Below are positions 1,839-9,501 of a DNA stretch of 12,401 bases, piece by piece. The notes beneath the pieces are model-generated. The model saw nothing but the letters and a program-made list of their open reading frames with translations, did not search any database and was not told the DNA's origin. The stretch is from a virus (taxonomy: Duplodnaviria > Heunggongvirae > Uroviricota > Caudoviricetes), in IMG/VR virus record IMGVR_UViG_2597490253_000016. The stretch is one strand, 5' to 3'. The position numbers and the translations under genes were made by a program. The first letter of the stretch is position 1. Each line of letters starts with the position of its first letter.

Positions 1839-2762
1839 TTATTCTAAATCGTCATATTCATTAAAGGTAAAATCATCAACAACTGGCGTTGCCGAACAAT
1901 AGTAGCCAGTGTCCGTTGTGCGGTAACGCCACATCAGCGCTTGCAAGTCTGTAGTGCGATGTAATCCGCGCCATTCGCCAATGCCATATACCGCTTCAGC
2001 AAAGGCAAATGGCGTCACGGTGTCGCGCGCATTTTCAACTTCACCGGGTGCGTAAACAGGAGAAATGCGTTGGTAGCCACACATTAACGGTACCAGGAAA
2101 CCAGGTATTGGCTTCGGCTGGTATACCCATTTTGCGCTGTTGTCTTCAGCCGGAGATTCGGCCTGATATTTAATCGCGGCGAAATCAAGCCAGGCATCCA
2201 GCAACGAGATGTCGGGATGTTGTTGGTGATGTTCAGCCAGCCATTCACTGCGATCGTAAAGCGCATAACCCGGCATTAACCGCCAGACGATTTTACGCAG
2301 TTGCTTTTCATCTTCAGGCGCATGAAAAAGCTGCGGATCGCGCATACTGACAATGCTGCCGCCCGCCAGTTTGTGGCTCTGGCAAAGCATTTTCAGATAG
2401 TCACAAAGAACTTTTCTGCCATATTCACCATTGGTGATTTCGCCATTACATTCAATCAGTAGAGAAACCGTCAAGTGCATGCGGCCCTCTTCATTGAACG
2501 AGGCGGTTTTACCTTCTCTGGTTAATGGGTTACGGGTGAGAGCGAACTAAAAATCGCGCCCAGAGCTGTACGCCTGAATATGCTGTTCATGGCTTACTAC
2601 CGCACAACCATCAAAACTTACGCCAAATTCATCCACGACTTTGCGAGAAAGCGCATGGACATAACCGAGAAAATGGGTCATCGACGGGAATCCCCAGGTC
2701 AACCCGGAGACAGCGTTAGCGTTTTCGATGCGTATATGGGGTAACAAGAGCAGATAACTCAT
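1839..2762 (-). pseudogene. csy2: Csy2 / Cas5f interrupted by an in-frame amber (TAG) codon at 2547-2549
   Basis: Two ORF-track fragments (2547..2762, 71 aa; 1839..2480, 213 aa) are in the same frame. Translating the gap by hand gives ...[37 protein letters not shown]..., so Cas5f-like similarity runs straight through the stop (plus-strand cta at 2547-2549). Full length would be 307 codons. The ATG (2762-2760) overlaps the csy1 stop in an ATGA arrangement. A sequencing error or amber suppression cannot be excluded from sequence alone. Confidence 0.7.
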
Positions 2763-4066
2763 TTCAGCGCCTCCTGCAAAACAGCTTCCATTTCACGCAT
2801 CCGTTGAGCGAACAGAGACTGGCTGCGCCACTCTTTTTGTTCGACAGCGCCTACGTCAAAACTGGATTTTTTCAGGCGATAGTTCAGCCAGCGTGCGAAA
2901 TCATCGGCGACAGTTACTTGCCAGTCGTTTTTCTCACGCTCCTGTTTGAAAGTCTCATCTGAGAGGCTTCGCCACGGGTCCAGCCAAAGTTGTTGGTGGC
3001 GAGGTAAGTCTGGTGATTGTGCGGACCATCCCTGCCATTTTTCTTGCTGAAAAGCGGATGCCTGCATGAACAGCAAATCGATCAACTCATCAATATATTT
3101 CGCCCGCACAGTTCGGATATGGACATTATTTATGTCAACCTTCAGTAAGTAGGTCATCTGGGCGACAATGCCTGAAGCCGCCCGATTGAAATCGCCGCGT
3201 AGGGAAAAAATACTGCGCATGTTTTGTGGCGCGCGATCCAGCGTCGCCCAGGTGGGCGGCATTGACGGCAACAGCCAGACACGGCCACCCCGCACACTAT
3301 TGAGCAAAGAAATATTCTGCGGTTTTGTGCCGCCAAAATGCATTTCGGCAAGATTAGGAAACCAGATATCTGGCTGGGAGTGCCATTTTCCTGCTTTGCG
3401 GGCATCGCGAATGGCTTTCGACTCCTCACTAAAGCGCACGGCGGTTAGCTTTTCATACATCGCCTGCGCCAGTGAACTGGAAAACAGTGGGCATAACAGG
3501 TGATAACCATCCGCAACAGGGAAATAGATTTGTTTCGCCAGTTTATGGCTGGAAGGCCGTCCAGTAGTCCATGCCTGGCTAAACCCAGCTACCCACAGCT
3601 CCAGTTGCACTTTATCCTCTGCAAACGTACTTAATGCCTGATAATCACCACGCTTCAGGCTGGCAAGCAGTGAATCTCCGTTCACATCGGTTTGTAGCAA
3701 CTTTGCTACGTCAAGTGCAGCGGCGTTACCAATCGCGTCAGTAGCGACATTCGCCAACGATGCTGTGTTTAAATAGCTTTCGTTAGCGGAGGTTTCCAGA
3801 TAAAAGCTACTGGCTTTAGAATCACCATGACTGAATTTAGCGCCATGAGTGACTAATTTGATTTGCCCGGCACGCTTTGCCGCATCCGTTAACCAGTTAC
3901 GTGGCAAGTAGCGTGCTTCGAGTTCCTGCCGCTCCTGAGCGATAACGCTGGCGTCCTCGCCCTGTTCCACTCGCTTTGCGGCTTCTTTTTCAAAGGCATC
4001 GATTTTGGGTTGCCTTCGCGAAGCGATGTATTCAGTAATAAATTGTATTAGCGCCGTTTTTTCCAT
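2759..4066 (-). CDS. csy1: Csy1 / Cas8f, large subunit of the type I-F Csy complex
   Basis: 435-aa ORF immediately upstream of csy2 with ATGA overlap; size and operon position match Csy1 (about 434 aa in Pseudomonas aeruginosa). Strong AAGGAG Shine-Dalgarno 6 nt upstream of ATG 4064-4066. Confidence 0.9.
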   Translation of the reverse strand: MEKTALIQFITEYIASRRQPKIDAFEKEAAKRVEQGEDASVIAQERQELEARYLPRNWLTDAAKRAGQIKLVTHGAKFSHGDSKASSFYLETSANESYLNTASLANVATDAIGNAAALDVAKLLQTDVNGDSLLASLKRGDYQALSTFAEDKVQLELWVAGFSQAWTTGRPSSHKLAKQIYFPVADGYHLLCPLFSSSLAQAMYEKLTAVRFSEESKAIRDARKAGKWHSQPDIWFPNLAEMHFGGTKPQNISLLNSVRGGRVWLLPSMPPTWATLDRAPQNMRSIFSLRGDFNRAASGIVAQMTYLLKVDINNVHIRTVRAKYIDELIDLLFMQASAFQQEKWQGWSAQSPDLPRHQQLWLDPWRSLSDETFKQEREKNDWQVTVADDFARWLNYRLKKSSFDVGAVEQKEWRSQSLFAQRMREMEAVLQEALK

Positions 4067-4208
4067 ATCGGCTCCTTTTCGTTAATCCATCAAGTCGAAG
4101 TTGCTCCCTGATTTCACTGAAAAATCTCCGTAGCCCAACATGGCTTCAGTACAACTGACATACACAGCAAAAGGGACAACACCAGTGGTGATCACACAAA
4201 CAAACTCT

Positions 4209-4235
4209 CCTAGAGATATCTTCTAAAAGATATTA
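4209..4235. promoter_or_regulatory. Putative operator: CC-PAM-flanked partial protospacer matching the seed of the mini-array spacer, overlapping an inverted repeat
   Basis: Plus strand CC(4209-4210)-TAGAGaTATCTtC(4211-4223) is identical to mini-array spacer positions 1-13 except positions 6 and 12. Overlaps inverted repeat ATATCTT-N4-AAGATAT (4216-4233) in an AT-rich region about 145 bp upstream of the csy1 start. Confidence 0.4.
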
Positions 4236-4282
4236 TTAAATCTCATGTAATCACCATAGGTGATATTAAAGCAACTTAATAT

Positions 4283-4311
4283 TTGCCACGCAATAGTTGA
4301 AGCACTAACAT
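4283..4311 (+). promoter_or_regulatory. Candidate sigma70 promoter for the crRNA-like RNA
   Basis: TTGCCA (4283-4288, 5/6 match to TTGACA), 17-bp spacer, TAACAT (4306-4311, 4/6 match to TATAAT); predicted start near 4318, at the start of the first degenerate repeat. Motif match only. Confidence 0.25.
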
Positions 4312-4317
4312 ACCCAA

Positions 4318-4392
4318 ACTGCCTTGAGCAGCTTAGAAATAGAGGTATCTCCGGATACGGACTTGTAAACTGCCGTACAGGCAGCTCGCGCC
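4318..4392 (+). ncRNA. crRNA-like RNA gene: degenerate two-repeat mini-array (psiR1-psiS-psiR2), candidate CreR/CreA-type regulator
   Basis: psiR1 4318-4339 ACTGCC-TTGA-GCAGCTTAGAAA (last 12 nt identical to the repeat 3' end, including the 8-nt 5' handle CTTAGAAA). psiS 4340-4364 TAGAGGTATCTCCGGATACGGACTT (25 nt). psiR2 4365-4392 GTaaACTGCCGTACAGGCAGCTcgcgcc (20 of the first 22 positions match; Cas6f hairpin CTGCCGTACAGGCAG intact). Opposite strand to the main array and cas genes; ends 3 nt before the cas3 stop codon. Confidence 0.55.
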
Positions 4393-4395
4393 CCA

Positions 4396-7300
4396 TCACA
4401 TGTTGCGAAACACACCTAACCAGGGGTGATAACGCCAGTCATCGACCGCATCTTCTTCACTGACGGGTACTCTCACCTCCGCAAACTTTTCCCCAACGTT
4501 TGCTATCTCACAACTTTGCTTATCAGCTAAATTCAACAAAACGTGTTGGTAATCCATCACGCCCCAGCAAGCGACGCCGCTGGCGCATCTCACCTCTTCT
4601 CGCCTGAAATTCCCTTGCGCTTTACGCTCGTTGTCGCCCGTGCGGGAATAGAAACGCGCTTCGCTTTCTTCATCATCCATATGCAGAAAAAACACCGCCT
4701 CCGGCAAAGGGGAATAACGAAATGGCGTCTGGCGCTGCATCCAGCCGTTCCAGCTTAGCGGTGCACGCCACCATTGCGCCGCCACCACATGTTTGCTTTT
4801 ACTGCTCATCAATTCGGCGGATAAACGACTATGTTCTAGCTCCGCCAGTTTGTTGGCATTATTGGCAGACAGGATCCGCGGCAAGGCGTTAATCGTCCGG
4901 TAGTCCGCGATCGGAATCAGTTCGCAAATATCGTGGCTATTCAGCAAGTGTTCTTTTGTTTCGAAACCAGGCTTACAAAATGCGGGGGCTTTTTTCTGCA
5001 ATGATTTGATATTGCTACGCAAAATAACCAGATTCTCACTGGTCGGCACATTTCTACGGTGGCGCTGAATACGTCCGGCAAATTGAATTATCGAACGCAT
5101 GGAGCTTGGTTCGATAATTCCCCAGTCCGCATCCCAGTCACGCCCCACTTCTATAACCGATGTCCCCAACACCACAAACAGATGGTGCGATTCCGGACGG
5201 TTATGTAAGGCATCTGCGATATCTTCGTTGTTCCAGAAATCGAGTTCGTTATGACGAGTAAAAGCGCGATCCAGTCGCTTCTCAATATCTGAACGCACCG
5301 CCAGCGGATGTCGGGAGTGGTAAACACAGTAATGAATGCAGACATCTTCTGGTGAAGGAATGGCAATCAGGGCTTTGGTCACCGCAACCAGTGGATTGAT
5401 ATTCGCGAAGCGCACCAGGCCCAGCGAAACGGTTTTACCGCTTTCGTGTCGCTGGCGATGCGCCTGATGCAACTTCAGCATTTGCGTATGCACCGTCTGG
5501 GCCACACTTTCGGTAACATCTTGTATCGCGCCTGATGCTGATGAAACCGAAGCTACACGCCCGAAATGCAGTCGTTCTTTTTCAGCCAGCATTACCGCTC
5601 GTCGTGCAACAAATTTGGCATGAGCATCACGAAACCCAGGTCCGTCGTAAATTTGCGTGGCATCAGCATCTTTTTCATCAAACCAGGCGCAGCATATATT
5701 GACAGGCCTGCCGTTGATACCACAAGACGCCTGCCACATTTTTCGCCCAGCAAGATAAGCCGCGAACAGCGCCTGAATCAAACCTGGCGGTAACGTCGCG
5801 GAAGAAAGTAATACCCGCGTTCCCAGCATCCCGGCCCAGTTCATCAATCGACATACCGCATGAAGATCAGCAATATCAAAGTCATCAGGTTCGTCGAGCA
5901 CTAAATCGCTGGTTAACAGGCGCAACATCGCCGGAAGCTGTTTCCCGCCTCGCACGCCCTCGGTCGCGGAAATAAGATGATCAATCGTCGAGACCAGAAT
6001 CGGCGCGCTTACTAACTCCTTAAGTTTGCTGTCATCCTTCAACCATTTTTCCAGCGCCCCGGTATGCAGGCTGCCTTCGTACTTAACGAACTGTTGCTCC
6101 TCTGCCGGCGACTCTTGCGAAGCACTTCCGCAATCATTGTCTATTTTTTCCTGTTGCCACAGTTGATTAACTGCCGCCGAACCAATCAGTACCGCCAGCT
6201 CATCCTCACCCAGCCCAAGCCGACTGCGCAGAGCATCGCCGGTTTGTAAAGTCAGCGTGCGCAATCCCAGCGCAACGGTAAAGCGGCACCCTTCTCGCTC
6301 GTCGGCAAGTGCATACATAATGCGGGCGTTCGCAAAGGTTTTACCACACCCCGTCGAGGCCATATTGACGCCGAAAAATCCCTCTTCACGACTTCGTTCA
6401 CGTAACGCTCGCGCCACATCCCAGGCTTTATCTTGCCAGCGATAATTCACATCTGTAGCCCGCTGGCTAAAACCTTTATGTCGGGCAATTGCCGGAAGCG
6501 ATGCCCGTGTGTGCATCAGTTGCCGCCCAAGCAGATACGCATGATGCGCGACGCCCACAAGGTGTTCGTCTACCCGTTGTTTGAGCGTGCCGCTTTGGCG
6601 ATCGCTATTTGCCCAGACGATATAATCCGGGTCCTGCCATTTTTGCTGCGCATCGCTTGAGGAATAGTAATGATCGGCAAGCATCAGACAAAAACGCGCC
6701 ATATGTAAGGGGAACAACTGTTCCATCTGCCCATATGTCTTTAAACCGAGCGCGTTGCTTGCCCGGCGGGCTATCTGACGCGCTTTTTCCCGCCAGCTCG
6801 CGCTTTGAAGCGGCGTTCCTGATGGAAACTGCCAGACGTGCGCAAAATCCTGTTGTGACCAGTCATCTCTGCGGTGGTTAACGGCATTCCAGTCAGCATT
6901 AAGTTGCTTCTCCAGCCAACTTTCACACCCTTTACATGATTGTTCCGACTGTGGAGAAAGATTCTCCGGCATTCGATGATGGGAAAGGATCAGCCAGCCT
7001 ACCGTTTTGGCTAATGGTTGCAGCGAACTGAACGGGCTATTTGAAAATTGAGGAGTGTCTTTTTGCAGGCGCTCAAGAATCGCAGATTCATCATCTGCCG
7101 TGAGTTCGCCAAGCTTCGCCAGCCACACATCGTCGGGCCGCTCACCGACAAACGTCTGAAAGAGCCGCAGTGAAATCCATTCATGTCGGTAAGGTTGATA
7201 ACTGCGGGTATTCTTTTGAGTCAGGCTTTGCTGAAAGCTGCGTCCTGATTTACCAAAATCATGAAATAGCCCAGCGATAGCCGCCAGCAGTGCAATACTT

Positions 7301-7629
7301 TCCGCGCACTGCCAGCGATTTTCTTCTTTGTTCACCAGGCTGATTTGCGTTGTTCGATTTGTGGGAACGCGGCCTTGAGCATTAAAGCGACGAATATTGC
7401 CGACAATCCACATCAGCTCCGTTTGCCCATTCTTCTTCAGCCAGTGACAAGCCACTGCGGTATTTCGCCTGGCGGTTTTGCGCAGTAAACGGCGGAGTGT
7501 ATTAACGCCTTCCAGAGTAATCACCGTTTGCCATGCTGCGTCACCAGTGCGTTCGGCAAACTGATCAATAATACGGCAGCTTTCCACGCGAGCATTTTTC
7601 GTACAGCGTGAGATAATTAGGACATTCAT
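4396..7629 (-). CDS. cas3: Cas2-Cas3 fusion (type I-F Cas2/3): N-terminal Cas2 domain, HD nuclease, superfamily 2 helicase
   Basis: 1077-aa ORF. HD motif in LLAAIAGLFHDFGKS, Walker A in MASTGCGKT, DExD-like LVLDEPDDFD; N-terminus MNVLIISRCTKNARVE...RNTAVACHW resembles Cas2. Start ATG 7629-7627 overlaps the cas1 stop (ATGA). Length matches I-F Cas2/3 (about 1076 aa in P. aeruginosa). Confidence 0.93.
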   Translation of the reverse strand: MNVLIISRCTKNARVESCRIIDQFAERTGDAAWQTVITLEGVNTLRRLLRKTARRNTAVACHWLKKNGQTELMWIVGNIRRFNAQGRVPTNRTTQISLVNKEENRWQCAESIALLAAIAGLFHDFGKSGRSFQQSLTQKNTRSYQPYRHEWISLRLFQTFVGERPDDVWLAKLGELTADDESAILERLQKDTPQFSNSPFSSLQPLAKTVGWLILSHHRMPENLSPQSEQSCKGCESWLEKQLNADWNAVNHRRDDWSQQDFAHVWQFPSGTPLQSASWREKARQIARRASNALGLKTYGQMEQLFPLHMARFCLMLADHYYSSSDAQQKWQDPDYIVWANSDRQSGTLKQRVDEHLVGVAHHAYLLGRQLMHTRASLPAIARHKGFSQRATDVNYRWQDKAWDVARALRERSREEGFFGVNMASTGCGKTFANARIMYALADEREGCRFTVALGLRTLTLQTGDALRSRLGLGEDELAVLIGSAAVNQLWQQEKIDNDCGSASQESPAEEQQFVKYEGSLHTGALEKWLKDDSKLKELVSAPILVSTIDHLISATEGVRGGKQLPAMLRLLTSDLVLDEPDDFDIADLHAVCRLMNWAGMLGTRVLLSSATLPPGLIQALFAAYLAGRKMWQASCGINGRPVNICCAWFDEKDADATQIYDGPGFRDAHAKFVARRAVMLAEKERLHFGRVASVSSASGAIQDVTESVAQTVHTQMLKLHQAHRQRHESGKTVSLGLVRFANINPLVAVTKALIAIPSPEDVCIHYCVYHSRHPLAVRSDIEKRLDRAFTRHNELDFWNNEDIADALHNRPESHHLFVVLGTSVIEVGRDWDADWGIIEPSSMRSIIQFAGRIQRHRRNVPTSENLVILRSNIKSLQKKAPAFCKPGFETKEHLLNSHDICELIPIADYRTINALPRILSANNANKLAELEHSRLSAELMSSKSKHVVAAQWWRAPLSWNGWMQRQTPFRYSPLPEAVFFLHMDDEESEARFYSRTGDNERKAQGNFRREEVRCASGVACWGVMDYQHVLLNLADKQSCEIANVGEKFAEVRVPVSEEDAVDDWRYHPWLGVFRNM

Positions 7630-8609
7630 TGGTCAGCCTTAGCCAGTGCCTGGGCCGTTTCCTGCAGAGAGGTGATCATGACATCCAGCGCATCCGCTTG
7701 TTGAAAGATATTAACACAGCGTTGACGAAACTCCTGAGCATCTTCTCCCGCCATTGCGGCAATAAATGCTTGCGGCATAACAAGAGCATCTTTAATCAGA
7801 TCGGCAAGGTCAAAAACAAGCCCGCCGCGACGTGTCTTACCATGCATTACAGCTAAACCGTGCGGGATACCTGTTACCCACGCCGCCACTGCTGCCAGTC
7901 CATAAGCCAGATAATTCCCTTGATCGAGGAAGCGGTTGGCCATATCGATACCACCGCCCCGTTTTGCGCGAGTGAAATCGCCATACCCCACGGTTTGACT
8001 GACCATTTTGTATAACGCTTTAGTCAATTTGGCCTCAACGAGCATAAGCTGCGTATGGTTTTCTGCCGCGTCTATTTCTTCACAAGTACGATTCAGGAGG
8101 GTATGCAGCGCATTAACATCAGGTTGAAATGCGTGTTCACGCAGCATTTTCGAGCTGGACCAGTGCTTATCGATATGTGTCAGGCGGATTAACTGAAAAC
8201 GTTTCGCGGCAGCAAGTCGTTTGTCTTCAACAAACCAGAAAGAAACCCACTGCTGGAGATACTCTGTAGGGCGATATTCACTTTGTGGGCTGAGCCAGGA
8301 GACATCAACATCCACTTCATTTGCTGAATACAGCGGCGTGCCATCCGTACCACAAAAGCCTACCATCACCCCGGCATGAGCAAATTCACGCATCGCCGCC
8401 TGGGTAACGGAAGTTCCCATTCCCAGCATCAACGCCGTGGTATTCGCAATGGGGATATTCCAGTAGTACGACTCTTTACCTTCGCTGGTAACATACTCCA
8501 CCCGCCCACCATTCACCTGTACCCGGCATTTTTCCAGATAATAAATATTGGCGCGTTTGGAGTGGAGAATGGTTTTGAGATCGGAAGGCGTAAGGTAATT
8601 CGAAGACAT
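7626..8609 (-). CDS. cas1: Cas1 integrase (type I-F)
   Basis: Protein contains LKTILHSKRANIYYL, RVEYVT, YWNIPIANTTALMLG, FCGTDGTPL, SWLSPQSEYRPTEYLQQWV, NRFLDQGNYLAYGLAA, GIPHGLAVMHGKTRRGGLVFDLADLIKD, strongly Cas1(I-F)-like. Start placed at the second ATG (8609-8607), which has AGGA 5 nt upstream; the ORF-track start at 8615 (2 codons longer) is an equally possible annotation. Confidence 0.92.
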   Translation of the reverse strand: MSSNYLTPSDLKTILHSKRANIYYLEKCRVQVNGGRVEYVTSEGKESYYWNIPIANTTALMLGMGTSVTQAAMREFAHAGVMVGFCGTDGTPLYSANEVDVDVSWLSPQSEYRPTEYLQQWVSFWFVEDKRLAAAKRFQLIRLTHIDKHWSSSKMLREHAFQPDVNALHTLLNRTCEEIDAAENHTQLMLVEAKLTKALYKMVSQTVGYGDFTRAKRGGGIDMANRFLDQGNYLAYGLAAVAAWVTGIPHGLAVMHGKTRRGGLVFDLADLIKDALVMPQAFIAAMAGEDAQEFRQRCVNIFQQADALDVMITSLQETAQALAKADQ

Positions 8610-8781
8610 AAACACATCCTGTGATTATTTTATATTTGAAGGTATTGGGCTTAGTACAGCATTGATTTATGTGCTGAAAATTGATTTCCATCGCAATTAT
8701 TACGATTGTTATTGCGTGCTAACGCTAATGGTTTGAAGTTGAGAGTGTCATTGCACGACCAAACGTCTAACACTATCGTAG
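8610..8781 (-). promoter_or_regulatory. AT-rich region between the array's terminal repeat and cas1; probable cas operon promoter/regulatory region
   Basis: About 170 bp non-coding and AT-rich with short direct repeats (ATTGATTT twice, ATTATTACG/ATTGTTATTG). No confident -35/-10 assignment could be made by eye. Confidence 0.3.
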
Positions 8782-9289
8782 TGTGAATACTGCCTGTACG
8801 GCAGTGAACAAGGAGAGACGGTCGCACTCTTCAACGTTCAGTTTCTAAGCTGCCTGTACGGCAGTGAACTGGCGGCAGGAGGGAGGACTGCTGCGCCATC
8901 ATTTCTAAGCTGCCTGTACGGCAGTGAACGCAGAGATTGAGCCATTCCCCGCAGCCGTGCTTTTCTAAGCTGCCTGTACGGCAGTGAACCCGCGCGGCTG
9001 AAATTGAGAGCCTCCGGCTGATTTCTAAGCTGCCTGTACGGCAGTGAACCAATAAAATATCAAAGGCGGTTTTATGCTGGCTTTCTAAGCTGCCTGTACG
9101 GCAGTGAACTTGTGCCTGTTTTATGCGGGCGCTCTGGTTTCTTTCTAAGCTGCCTGTACGGCAGTGAACACGCTGCGCAGTACCCTGACCGGTGCGAACG
9201 TTTTCTAAGCTGCCTGTACGGCAGTGAACGGTTTCGCCTCAATGATCTGCATATGGCGTCATTTCTAAGCTGCCTGTACGGCAGTGAAC
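8782..9289 (-). CRISPR. Type I-F CRISPR array: 9 repeats (8 identical 28-bp plus 1 degenerate terminal) and 8 spacers of 32 bp
   Basis: Plus-strand unit TTTCTAAGCTGCCTGTACGGCAGTGAAC, i.e. minus-strand GTTCACTGCCGTACAGGCAGCTTAGAAA (canonical I-F repeat). Repeats at 8842-8869, 8902-8929, 8962-8989, 9022-9049, 9082-9109, 9142-9169, 9202-9229, 9262-9289. Terminal repeat 8782-8809 reads GTTCACTGCCGTACAGGCAGtATTcAcA in crRNA sense (degenerate 3' end), which fixes the orientation: leader at the high-coordinate end, transcription toward cas1. Confidence 0.97.
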
Positions 9290-9437
9290 TCAAATACTAC
9301 ACGTTTAGCCCGTTGTTAATAAAGCAAAACCATCTCAATCTCCTGCTGCCACCCTTTTTTATCCTTACCTACCCGCAGCACTAATTATCAATAACTTAGC
9401 ATCATCATTAAAAAAAGGGTCTGAACCTCCTCCCCCC
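9290..9437 (-). other. Putative CRISPR leader
   Basis: AT-rich non-coding stretch between the first (leader-proximal) repeat and the clpA terminator. Orientation inferred from the degenerate terminal repeat at the opposite end. Confidence 0.55.
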
Positions 9438-9478
9438 ATAAATAAAAAGTCCGTAACCCCTGACGAGATCACGGACTT
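9438..9478 (-). terminator. Putative Rho-independent terminator of clpA
   Basis: Minus-strand 8-bp stem AAGTCCGT/ACGGACTT (9471-9478 pairing with 9447-9454) with a 16-nt loop, followed by TTTATTTAT; 23 nt after the clpA stop. Loop is long; not folded computationally. Confidence 0.5.
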
Positions 9479-9501
9479 AACCAACCTACCTGACAATCAG
9501 A

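Follow-up and report, generated by a model that had tools for sequence, protein, structure and literature searches.

What is the function of a lone repeat-spacer-repeat unit that lies inside a cas locus and faces away from all of its other components? Such a degenerate, stand-alone mini-array (PsiR1-PsiS-PsiR2) occupies plus-strand positions 4318-4392 of an E. coli type I-F cas locus in the window, i.e., the whole stretch of DNA analyzed (12.4 kb). The regulator class considered here has been known since 2021-2023 (Shmakov 2023, PMC10120712; Li laboratory), and members at exactly the cas3-csy1 position of I-F loci have been published since 2023 (PMC10120712; PMC10097628; 10.1101/2024.01.05.574328; 10.64898/2026.06.02.729485). 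Judged by its sequence, the E. coli unit belongs with the crRNA-like regulatory RNAs published as CreR/CreA. Its RNA very probably guides the CRISPR complex onto the control region of its own operon, and its role is most likely repression of the csy transcription unit. The best explanation, which we regard as fairly probable, is that 4318-4392 is the gene for a crRNA-like regulatory RNA (crlRNA/CreR/CreA) autoregulating the csy effector.

The mini-array and its predicted RNA

Pfam matches place the cas genes on the minus strand, namely cas6f (csy4; 262-858; Cas_Csy4, E = 3.3e-65), csy2 (cas5f; 1839-2762), in which codon 72 (2547-2549) is an in-frame amber, csy1 (cas8f; 2759-4066; Cas_Csy1, E = 1.6e-125) and cas2-3 (4396-7629; Cas3_I-F_Cas2 and Cas3 C-terminal domains). 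The main I-F CRISPR array (8772-9289; 9 repeats, 60-nt period), with the repeat GTTCACTGCCGTACAGGCAGCTTAGAAA on the minus strand, shares this strand with every cas gene; it is also the source of competing canonical crRNAs. The mini-array lies 4.4 kb from the main array, and its coordinates and strand agree with the initial description of a single plus-strand unit opposing the array and all cas genes. It is located in the cas2-3/csy1 intergenic region (4067-4395), previously put at about 330 bp and measured here at 329 bp, and is convergent with cas2-3, the stop codon of which is found 3 nt past PsiR2. Among 80 related I-F loci the spacing of these two genes is bimodal, being either ~9-36 bp (~30 loci) or ~290-500 bp or more. 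The 239 matching places are all chromosomal and correspond to the clpA-infA I-F locus of E. coli. Type I-F systems are present in ~4% of complete E. coli genomes, mostly in extraintestinal pathogenic lineages (e.g., UTI89, NRG 857C, and APEC).

The sequence-only reading had described a first pseudo-repeat with an exact 12-nt end and 8-nt handle, a 25-nt spacer, and a second pseudo-repeat with an exact hairpin and a diverged 3' end, all of which was borne out on the sequence. Comparison with the array repeat defined PsiR1 (4318-4339; ACTGCCTTGAGCAGCTTAGAAA), the last 12 nt of which are identical to the end of that repeat. Outside the array there is no other occurrence of GCAGCTTAGAAA in the window, the chance expectation for matches with at most one mismatch being 0.08. 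PsiR1 forms the hairpin CUGC-CUUGA-GCAG (4319-4331) and ends in the 8-nt 5' handle CUUAGAAA (4332-4339), also given as CTTAGAAA, exactly as in the array repeat. The altered hairpin loop had been recognized earlier, while the shortening of the stem, which has 4 bp in the window lineage and 5 bp in sister lineages, had been missed. The loop differs among Escherichia lineages (TTGA, GTT, ATC, ATT), the lower stem and handle being retained. PsiS is a 25-nt spacer-like guide (4340-4364; TAGAGGTATCTCCGGATACGGACTT) with an internal hairpin, GUAUC-UCCG-GAUAC, at guide nt 6-19. Finally, PsiR2 (4365-4392; GTAAACTGCCGTACAGGCAGCTCGCGCC) retains GUAAA and the exact Cas6f hairpin CUGCCGUACAGGCAG (4370-4384), and its final 8 nt have diverged to CTCGCGCC in place of CTTAGAAA.

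The product of cas6f is the endoribonuclease expected to cut both pseudo-repeats. Since Cas6f cleaves at the 3' base of the repeat stem, the mature crRNA-like RNA is predicted to span 4332-4384 (plus strand; 53 nt), comprising the 8-nt handle, the 25 nt of PsiS and a 20-nt part with the 3' hairpin. Processing at the 5' end of this RNA is not assured, given that the PsiR1 stem has 4 bp only. The minimum free energy structure of the whole unit pairs PsiR1 with PsiR2 and is not better than those of shuffled sequences (z = -0.9); this fold is uninformative because Cas6f reads local hairpins. In an Rfam scan of 4000-4500, PsiR2 matched CRISPR-DR4 below threshold (E = 0.033), and no other RNA family was detected. 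The unit was also considered as a canonical CRISPR array, a reading that was rejected because both repeats are degenerate, the spacer has 25 nt instead of 32, and PsiS is invariant across lineages instead of polymorphic.

It had been argued that exactly the parts ending up in a crRNA are selectively conserved, and the comparison of five Escherichia lineages agrees with this. The predicted mature RNA is the best-conserved stretch of the region, with 3 of its 53 columns variable, and its flanks vary at 57-70%. Variable columns amount to 37/60 in 4224-4282, 7/10 at the 3' end of PsiR2 (4385-4392) and 9/41 at the coding end of cas3. Within the mature RNA, 4365-4384 is invariant, and so is PsiS save for nt 5 and 6. 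Furthermore, a sigma70-like promoter is predicted directly before the unit (4283-4311, plus strand), consisting of a -35 TTGCCA (4283-4288), a 17-nt spacer and a -10 TAACAT (4306-4311). It is the sole sigma70-like match in 3900-4600 and has the top plus-strand PWM score, and the predicted start, at ~4318, coincides with the foot of the PsiR1 hairpin. The promoter is conserved as TTGCCA/TTGCAG/TTGCAA-17-TAACAT in the five lineages, in surroundings that are ~50-60% variable. In most loci of other genera, 7-10 nt separate the end of a -10 from the PsiR1 hairpin.

The guide target and the predicted promoters around it

Our analysis revealed a seed match of PsiS within the same intergenic region, 130 nt upstream of PsiS. 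It consists of a CC PAM (4209-4210) followed by the protospacer TAGAGATATCTTC (4211-4223), both on the plus strand, and pairs with the guide at nt 1-5, 7-11 and 13, the mismatches at nt 6 and 12 following a 6-nt periodic pattern. The sequence-only reading had named no target. A CC-PAM seed-matched site occurs only here in the 12.4-kb window, with 0.02 expected per window by chance. The target lies 142 nt upstream of the ATG of csy1, the first effector gene downstream of it. In the csy sense it is closely preceded by two -10 candidates, which are weak but conserved in position. In Escherichia lineages the PAM is invariant and positions 6 and 12 vary freely. In the divergent E. coli lineage L001, position 5 has changed from G to T in spacer and target alike, in a compensatory manner.

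In addition, the same module was found in the I-F loci of 21 further species, where the guides are unrelated and each matches its own region. Three of the 24 loci in this sample come from Escherichia species, and 26 loci result when the window and L001 are included. A PAM and seed match with at most one mismatch was obtained for 24/26 own-locus pairings vs. 13/626 cross-locus pairings. Pairing of guide and target, taken position by position, is complete (100%) over nt 1-5 and drops to 50% at nt 6; it is again 80-100% over nt 7-11, but 20% at nt 12. In the loci compared, the strand of the target is always such that the guide pairs with the non-template strand of the csy unit. The proposal of the earlier reading, a CreA/CreR-type regulatory RNA that guides the Csy complex to a promoter without cleavage, gains support from the CC-PAM seed target in the unit's own region, the compensatory change, the own-locus guide matches and the conserved promoter before PsiR1.

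These data also bear on whether the unit is simply without function, as the decaying remains of a former array or as two stray repeats, and resembles a mature crRNA by accident. Isolated repeats are known to appear now and then in numerous cas loci (PMC10120712), and csy2 is broken in the window strain. However, the part corresponding to the mature RNA is far better conserved than the flanks and the cas3 coding end, the promoter is conserved as well, the same architecture with different guides is present in many genera, and the covariation with a PAM-flanked target already contradicts such an origin, which we consider very improbable.

The promoter of the csy unit is weakly predicted in E. coli, with two minus-strand candidates (PWM 6-8). 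Candidate P2 (4227-4254; PWM 6.2) consists of a -35 GTGATT (4254-4249), a 16-nt spacer and a -10 TATCTT (4232-4227), and its predicted start, ~4220, falls inside the protospacer; at the place of its -10, a TAnnTT hexamer (TATCTT, TAGATT, TAAATT) is aligned in 5/5 Escherichia lineages. The alternative PWM prediction (4263-4293) has a -35 TTGCGT (4293-4288), a 19-nt spacer and a -10 TAATAT (4268-4263), and would place the target at about +33 to +45 from the start. This -10 is conserved as TAATAT/TAATGT/TAGTAT in 5/5 lineages and is preceded by TGn in 4/5. In E. coli the target is situated downstream of the candidate -10s, whereas in other genera it abuts a strong -35 facing csy1: in 14/20 non-Escherichia loci the best csy-sense -35 is 0-3 nt (once 10 nt) past the PAM complement. 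The PWM scan predicted no promoter between the small ORF that follows the target (see below) and csy1, and no terminator was found in 3900-4600.

The guide could instead control a plus-strand promoter, so that the mini-array limits its own synthesis, or a target elsewhere in the genome, and not csy. In three Escherichia lineages a plus-strand promoter, TTCACC-17-TAATCT, is indeed predicted with a score of 8.7, similar to that of the minus-strand candidate, with the PAM in its -35 and the protospacer as its spacer. Moreover, conservation extends over the full 25 nt of the guide, yet only 13 are involved at the local target, which may point to a further constraint or to another target. On the other hand, the window lineage lacks this promoter (CTCTCC for TTCACC; best score 4.3), the promoter adjoining the target in other genera clearly faces csy1, and the 12.4-kb window contains no second target site. 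Taken together, control of something other than csy seems improbable.

If csy is the regulated unit, the circuit may operate as follows. Transcription would begin at the foot of PsiR1 from the conserved TTGCCA-17-TAACAT promoter (4283-4311). Considering the conserved hairpins and the known chemistry of Cas6f, the enzyme would cut after both hairpins and release the 53-nt RNA, in which the 25-nt guide is flanked by a 5' handle (CUUAGAAA) and a 3' hairpin, both canonical. By analogy with CreA2 of P. aeruginosa, this RNA could assemble a Csy complex with probably one Cas7f fewer than usual. The complex would then bind the CC-flanked site at 4209-4223 by pairing at guide nt 1-5, 7-11 and 13, as the covariation suggests, presumably without cleavage, since so short a pairing would not suffice to complete the R-loop and recruit Cas2-3. 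The target appears to be flanked by the candidate csy-sense -10s on one side and by the ribosome-binding site that serves the first reading frame on the other, with pairing to the non-template strand; owing to this position and strand, transcription through the small ORF into csy1-csy2-csy3-cas6f would be blocked. The outcome would be negative autoregulation of the effector, lifted when crRNAs or anti-CRISPRs titrate the Csy proteins.

Comparison with known crRNA-like regulators

Experiments on P. aeruginosa and Acinetobacter I-F loci of the same arrangement have demonstrated repression without cleavage that depends on Csy and on the guide (PMC10120712 among the sources). The I-F1 regulatory mini-array described by Shmakov et al. 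(2023; PMC10120712), and shown in P. aeruginosa YL84 to repress without cleavage, resembles the E. coli unit in several respects: the position between cas3 and cas8f, the orientation opposite to cas3, a seed-side pseudo-repeat with an intact 5' handle, a shortened spacer, and a CC-PAM target between mini-array and cas8f with mismatches at 6 and 12. The E. coli unit differs in its host and in its guide, which is unrelated. Furthermore, its target lies past the candidate -10s and reaches the ribosome-binding site in front of a small ORF, whereas theirs adjoins the -35. The E. coli locus may already be included in the lists of that survey.

CreR (Liu et al., 2023; 10.1101/2023.03.10.532045) is likewise a degenerate mini-CRISPR with a 5' handle from PsiR1 and a 3' handle from PsiR2, partially complementary on the PAM-proximal side to the control region of the effector operon, and with no obvious toxin. 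CreR was tested for types I-B, I-E and V-A, and I-F examples appear only in a supplementary figure (10.1101/2023.03.10.532045). In contrast to CreR, the E. coli unit has a small ORF between target and csy1.

The CreTA/CrePA modules of I-F loci that were compared are those of Acinetobacter WCHA45 (PMC10097628), CreP of A. baylyi (10.1101/2024.01.05.574328), and CreTA1 and CreTA2 of P. aeruginosa (10.64898/2026.06.02.729485). They also occupy the cas3-csy1 region, with creA divergent from an SD-preceded ORF downstream of a CC-flanked target, and the E. coli unit fits their size range (guides of 20-30 nt, mature RNAs of 48-54 nt), for which CreA1 (48 nt) and CreA2 (54 nt) of P. aeruginosa are examples (10.64898/2026.06.02.729485). 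Their toxins, namely an RNA with a 33-bp mini-ORF, a 15-nt proline-codon mini-ORF with a GC hairpin, and a 103-aa KilA-C protein, are all absent from the E. coli module.

The Racr/Cracr RNAs of phages are small and derived from repeats as well, with Cas6f and Csy proteins as their partners (PMC10651486; 10.1101/2024.10.29.618823). However, their carriers are phages or plasmids and their action is directed at the host, while the E. coli unit is inside the cas operon and chromosomal in all 239 places. No copy of the mini-array was found in phage and plasmid collections (blastn) or in IMG/VR, where fifteen pattern matches all lacked the repeat hairpin and were dismissed as chance matches in AT-rich DNA. 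Membership in the Racr/Cracr group was rejected on these grounds.

Autoregulation of this kind would add the second CRISPR system of E. coli (I-F) to those self-regulated by a crRNA-like RNA. It would also make available a defined RNA of 53 nt and an operator of 15 bp in a host with convenient genetics. The circuit would affect the response of I-F expression to anti-CRISPR phages, and a compact repressor built on Csy could be derived from it. As an example of its class the E. coli copy is solid and unsurprising, and it leaves the current view of CRISPR regulation unchanged.

The small reading frame and the csy2 amber codon

Between the target and csy1, the window contains a minus-strand ORF of 37 aa (4082-4195; VITTGVVPFAVYVSCTEAMLGYGDFSVKSGSNFDLMD) with a GTG start at 4195, whose SD-like AGGAG (4211-4207) takes in the PAM complement. 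A ribosome-binding site and small ORF directly past the target form the layout of a CreTA/CrePA toxin module, an observation that counts against an autoregulator. Four other Escherichia lineages carry at this place an intact 27-aa hydrophobic ORF with an ATG start and a good SD (MIITTGVVPFAVCVVVLKPGWATEIFQ), and other Enterobacterales have a hydrophobic ORF of 45-55 aa at the equivalent position. Comparison of the Cedecea and Buttiauxella ORFs yielded 15 synonymous vs. 6 non-synonymous codon differences, indicating purifying selection. The E. coli ORF may be a degenerate relative of these longer ORFs.

The mini-array might instead be the CreA antitoxin of a live CRISPR-repressed toxin-antitoxin pair, with the ORF or RNA at 4195-4082 as the toxin. 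In that case, loss or inhibition of Csy would free the toxin, leading to growth stop, addiction to the effector and abortion of infections by anti-CRISPR phages. The layout of the Acinetobacter CreTA/CrePA and P. aeruginosa CreTA modules, with creA divergent from an SD-preceded ORF in the cas3-csy1 region, speaks for such a pair, as do the selected ORF of other Enterobacterales, the intact 27-aa ORF, and an inverted repeat that could sequester the ORF start in the manner of type I toxin mRNAs. Yet in the window lineage the ATG is gone and an insertion of 1 nt has put the ORF out of frame with that of the other Escherichia lineages, and the substitution pattern of the 27-aa ORF gives no clear coding signal. 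Scans of ten small ORFs against Pfam and NCBIfam returned no match and no toxin family, the E. coli ORF has no similarity to known CreT or CreP, and the features of P. aeruginosa CreT (SD, 15-nt proline mini-ORF, GC hairpin) are absent from the E. coli region by inspection. A protein database search with a 49-aa ORF retrieved only one homologue, because such ORFs are rarely called.

The csy2 amber codon also argues against addiction. The exact 61 nt around it are common to 125/238 I-F-positive complete E. coli genomes, and the intergenic segment of the window is carried by 195/201. ATCC 11775, whose csy2 is annotated as a pseudogene, combines the same amber codon with an intergenic region identical to that of the window. 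Since amber-csy2 genomes keep the same intergenic segment, release from repression appears to be tolerated; the module is unchanged in genomes with a broken csy2, and this genomic comparison, although indirect, gives no sign that effector loss is lethal or strongly deleterious, as it is in CreTA/CrePA. On present genome comparisons, an active toxin partner in the E. coli lineage is unlikely, and the antitoxin reading is unlikely with it.

A combination of both roles is also conceivable, although doubtful: the cas3-csy1 module of Enterobacterales may represent a third type of CRISPR-repressed toxin, decay of which turned the E. coli module into an autoregulator, with the guide hairpin sequestering the seed. 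The cargo would then be an unannotated family of 45-55-aa proteins whose N-terminus is hydrophobic and which share a VKP motif and, at the C-terminus, a SIFTFNF-like strand; in size and layout they resemble Hok-type membrane toxins. The 27-aa form, the frameshifted form and csy2 loss would form a series of toxin decay in which a CreA antitoxin becomes a plain autoregulator. Moreover, a selected seed-sequestering hairpin in the guide could handicap its loading vs. true crRNAs and in this way set the sensitivity of the circuit.

With regard to autoregulation of csy, the Csy complex is probably not made in the window strain, given the csy2 amber codon. As csy2 is broken, the circuit is probably inert in this genome and the loop left open. 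Natural controls are available, namely strains that share the control region and differ in whether csy2 is intact or amber, and a sister lineage in which guide and target have changed in a compensatory manner. NRG 857C, in which csy2 is intact, has an intergenic region identical to that of the window.

The I-F locus and its mini-array

[quoted passage not shown] All cas genes identified with Pfam lie on the minus strand, namely cas6f (262-858), csy3 (827-1828), csy2 (1839-2762), csy1 (2759-4066), cas2-3 (4396-7629) and cas1 (7626-8615). The main CRISPR array (8772-9289) comprises nine repeats, reading GTTCACTGCCGTACAGGCAGCTTAGAAA on the minus strand. Its repeat closest to cas1 (8772-8809) is degenerate (63% identity), which places the leader on the clpA side (~9290-9500), so that array and cas genes are read the same way.

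The sequence-only reading had described a degenerate repeat-spacer-repeat unit on the plus strand between cas2-3 and csy1, and every feature of that description was found in the sequence where it had been placed. The first pseudo-repeat, PsiR1 (4318-4339, ACTGCCTTGAGCAGCTTAGAAA), retains the final 12 nt of the repeat unaltered, the spacer or guide (4340-4364) is 25 nt long, and the second pseudo-repeat, PsiR2 (4365-4392, GTAAACTGCCGTACAGGCAGCTCGCGCC), preserves the Cas6f hairpin exactly but has diverged at its 3' end. The PsiR1 stem of the window lineage has 4 bp (CUGC/GCAG) and a 5-nt loop. Array aside, the 12-mer GCAGCTTAGAAA has no second site, the chance expectation being 0.08 matches at one mismatch or fewer. 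A canonical array and a phage-borne mimic were both rejected as explanations; no copy of the mini-array was found in phage, plasmid or IMG/VR collections.

The 329-bp intergenic region (4067-4395) had been considered unusually long, and the gap between cas3 and csy1 is indeed bimodal across 80 I-F loci retrieved via Csy1, measuring ~9-36 bp in ~30 of them and ~290-500 bp or more in ~30 others. The region is 100% identical in the window, ATCC 11775, NRG 857C and many other strains. It is present in 239 of 5426 complete E. coli genomes, chromosomal in every case and annotated in none; 201 copies are at least 95% identical, 37 are ~80% identical and one falls in the 80-90% band. Between the window and L001, the locus of the divergent E. 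coli strain 503829, nucleotide identity is 83% in csy1 and ~80% in the intergenic region, compared with 94-95% in cas2-3, csy2 and csy3, a pattern that points to recombination, or to diversifying selection, with its focus on Cas8f and its control region.

Directly 3' of PsiR2, a GC-rich hairpin of the type CGCGCCCTC-NNNN-GAGGGCGCG was observed in 12 of the loci fetched for comparison (L015, L016, L018, L021, L030, L033, L036, L038, L039, L043, L048 and L059). In the one example examined, GTG TTT CGC GCC CTC GAT TGA on the cas3 strand, its loop contains the cas2-3 stop codon. Escherichia keeps just the 5' half (CTCGCGCC), which accounts for the odd 3' end of its PsiR2.

Predicted guide-target pairing in Escherichia and other genera

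On the mini-array strand, 130 nt upstream of the spacer, CC is followed by TAGAGATATCTTC (PAM 4209-4210, protospacer 4211-4223), which agrees with the guide at positions 1-5, 7-11 and 13 but not at 6 and 12. Every sixth base of a type I-F guide is flipped out, and the two mismatches are thus the pattern expected for such a guide. The target is unique of its kind in the window, with a chance expectation of 0.02.

Five lineages were compared, namely the window, L001 and three loci from a Csy1 scan: L003 (E. whittamii), L005 (Escherichia sp. E1V33) and L006 (E. coli SCPM-O-B-8794). Selective conservation of the parts that would end up in a Csy-loaded RNA, as previously proposed, was borne out, since the predicted mature RNA (4332-4384) varies in only 3 of 53 columns (handle position 3, guide positions 5 and 6), while variable columns amount to 37 of 60 in 4224-4282, 4 of 7 in 4312-4318, 7 of 10 in the PsiR2 3' end and 9 of 41 in the cas3 coding end. 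The PsiR1 loop differs by lineage (TTGA, GTT, ATC, ATT), and the lower stem and handle are kept. Within the PAM and protospacer, variation is confined to positions 5, 6 and 12. Position 5 is T in both guide and target of L001 and G in both for the other four lineages, which, judging from the sequences, is a compensatory change. Guide and target change independently of each other at position 6 (G/A and A/G/T, respectively), and position 12 is mismatched in every lineage. Conservation and covariation together bear the sequence signature of selection on a processed, Csy-loaded guide pairing with the target, and they exclude a decaying array fragment.

Long intergenic regions were also searched for the repeat hairpin and handle. 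Of the fetched loci, 24 hold the mini-array unit in unchanged orientation. Escherichia accounts for three of these and other bacteria for 21, including Enterobacter, Atlantibacter, Leclercia, Cedecea, Buttiauxella, Mixta, Dickeya, Rahnella, Photorhabdus, Aeromonas, Stenoxybacter, Azonexus and several metagenome-assembled genomes; several additional loci hold more degenerate copies. The guides are 10-33 nt in length and unrelated from genus to genus. With the window and L001 counted, 24 of 26 loci contain in their own region a CC-flanked site that fits the guide at positions 1-5 and 7-11 with no more than one mismatch, compared with only 13 of 626 pairings when a guide is set against the region of another locus under the same criterion. 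Except in L036, the match lies on the mini-array strand between mini-array and csy1, ~55-135 nt upstream of the PsiR1 hairpin. Guide positions 1-5 pair in 100% of 20 non-redundant loci, position 6 in 50%, positions 7-11 in 80-100%, position 12 in 20%, positions 13-17 in 55-90% and position 18 in 35%, with background levels beyond. In L046 (Erwinia sp. P6884), ~11 canonical repeats oriented opposite to the cas genes replace the mini-array, the final unit being PsiR2-like and diverged at its 3' end, in agreement with reports that mini-arrays and long arrays alternate at the cas3-csy1 site.

Predicted promoters, small ORFs and probable effector loss

All promoter assignments in this work are predictions. 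Directly upstream of PsiR1, the plus strand carries a sigma70-like promoter (TTGCCA-17-TAACAT, 4283-4311), the sole sigma70-like match in 3900-4600 and the top plus-strand PWM match, which is kept in all five Escherichia lineages amid variable sequence. The predicted start (~4318) falls at the foot of the PsiR1 hairpin, hence the decay of the 5' part of PsiR1. In most loci of other genera, the -10 ends 7-10 nt ahead of this hairpin.

Regarding the csy-sense direction, the best promoter of the region in other genera (e.g., TTGACA-17-TAAGAT, TTGACA-17-TAGATT, TTGACA-17-TATATT) has its -35 0-3 nt (once 10) past the PAM complement in 14 of 20 loci, so that the -35 would be covered once a Csy complex is bound. 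In Escherichia, by contrast, a ribosome-binding site and a small ORF directly follow the PAM complement. Two weak -10 candidates of conserved position lie upstream of the target on the minus strand, TATCTT/TAGATT/TAAATT (4232-4227) and TAATAT (4268-4263, TG-extended in four of five lineages), so that the target would be located at the predicted transcription start or ~35 nt downstream. The G+C content of 4200-4289 is 27-28%. The strand of the csy unit that is complementary to the guide is the non-template one in all loci but L036, and in Cascade-based silencing this orientation makes an effective roadblock.

What the targeted promoter drives leaves some room for the main, though less favoured, rival explanation, according to which it controls a live toxin and the mini-array RNA is the antitoxin. 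In many Enterobacterales loci the promoter is followed by an unannotated ORF of 45-55 aa, hydrophobic at its N-terminus, with a VKP motif and, towards the C-terminus, a SIFTFNF-like one. ORFs of 45-65 aa with such an N-terminus were noted just upstream of csy1 in L021, L030, L033, L036, L038, L039, L050, L056, L059, L061, L065 and L100 (4001-4150), several of them bearing both motifs. The Cedecea and Buttiauxella copies differ by 15 synonymous versus 6 non-synonymous codon changes, and a metagenome contig carries a homologue between cas2-3 and csy1. No Pfam or NCBIfam model matched the ORF, which is a candidate new CRISPR-repressed small protein. The four Escherichia lineages other than the window's have a 27-aa ATG-start ORF (MIITTGVVPFAVCVVVLKPGWATEIFQ) after the target, the ribosome-binding site of which (AGGTGA) takes in the PAM complement. 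The window lineage has lost this ATG and carries a 1-nt insertion near 4144 that alters the frame; what is left is a 37-aa ORF with a GTG start behind AGGAG (4195-4082, minus strand). In two Azonexus loci (L067, L069) and in L082, a strong SD (AAGGAGG), a ~15-codon mini-ORF and a GC-rich hairpin lie past the targeted promoter, an arrangement resembling published CreT RNA toxins.

However, codon 72 of csy2 (2547-2549, minus strand) is an in-frame amber TAG in the window, while it is CAA in strain 503829. ATCC 11775 has the same amber codon, its csy2 being annotated as a pseudogene, together with an intergenic region identical to that of the window. Exactly the same 61 nt surround the codon in 125 of 238 complete genomes that are I-F-positive, including that of UTI89, and about half of E. 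coli I-F systems may thus be without a working effector. Intact csy2 accompanies the same intergenic region in NRG 857C and one differing by a single base in JA0266; across 4125-4215, 195 of the 201 genomes with the window-type region are identical. With an amber csy2 and an unchanged control region, effector loss is evidently tolerated, which favours a CreR-type autoregulator of the cas genes, perhaps derived from a module that once carried a toxin. The sequenced strain probably makes no Csy complex, in which case the RNA, although it may still be transcribed and cleaved, would be unable to act.

Proposed mechanism, known systems and local folding

Given the conserved promoter, transcription would begin from 4283-4311, and Cas6f, from its known chemistry and the conservation boundaries, would release a 53-nt RNA (4332-4384). 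By analogy with the 54-nt CreA2, this RNA may assemble a Csy complex with one Cas7f fewer, which would bind 4209-4223 via 11-12 base pairs, a step supported by the covariation. Following the established I-F mechanism, Cas2-3 would not be recruited because the R-loop is incomplete, and for P. aeruginosa YL84 this was demonstrated (PMC10120712). The small-ORF-csy1-4 unit would be repressed, with relief when Csy proteins are titrated.

Regulatory mini-arrays in the I-F cas3-csy1 region that aim at the cas8f promoter are known and validated for YL84 (PMC10120712). The same region houses CreTA pairs with small RNA toxins in Acinetobacter (PMC10097628) and P. aeruginosa (10.64898/2026.06.02.729485), as well as CrePA with a KilA-C protein toxin (10.1101/2024.01.05.574328). 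The E. coli mini-array has the structure of the CreR/CreA class, and is probably a further member of this already known class. In the sole test of CreTA/CrePA addiction made on genomes, the E. coli module did not behave as addictive. No description of the E. coli I-F copy was found in the literature searched, and the supplementary lists of two surveys may include it. Specific to E. coli are a target at the predicted transcript start rather than at the -35 as in other genera, a degenerate small ORF, and natural csy2-null strains with an unchanged control region.

Three further observations are regarded as leads from small and partly related samples: an inverted repeat around the target, guide conservation beyond pairing, and guide hairpins. 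The two arms of an imperfect 17-nt inverted repeat (82% complementary; 4180-4196 and 4246-4262) enclose the PAM, protospacer, SD and one -10 candidate, and the GTG with which the small ORF opens falls within the left arm; the repeat may form a structure in the mRNA leader or serve as an operator for a protein. A comparable bracket, of different sequence, is seen in sister lineages. A perfect palindrome in the AT-rich promoter zone (ATCACC-ATA-GGTGAT, 4250-4264) is present in the window lineage alone. The E. coli guide is conserved over its 25 nt, yet just 13 pair with the target. Mini-array guides tend to hold an internal hairpin with its 5' arm in the seed, a trait for which no description was found in the mini-array literature examined; in the window it is GUAUC-UCCG-GAUAC (4345-4358, -5.9 kcal/mol). 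The mean z-score versus shuffles is -1.9 for 18 guides (window and 17 other loci) and -0.5 for ordinary spacers. In the paired set of 17 guides, the one-sample Wilcoxon test against zero gave P = 0.0002, and folding was more stable for the guides than for the respective DNA targets (P = 0.008, paired Wilcoxon). Loci with the common seed TATATAAAGC differ in their 3' halves, each of which pairs with the seed.
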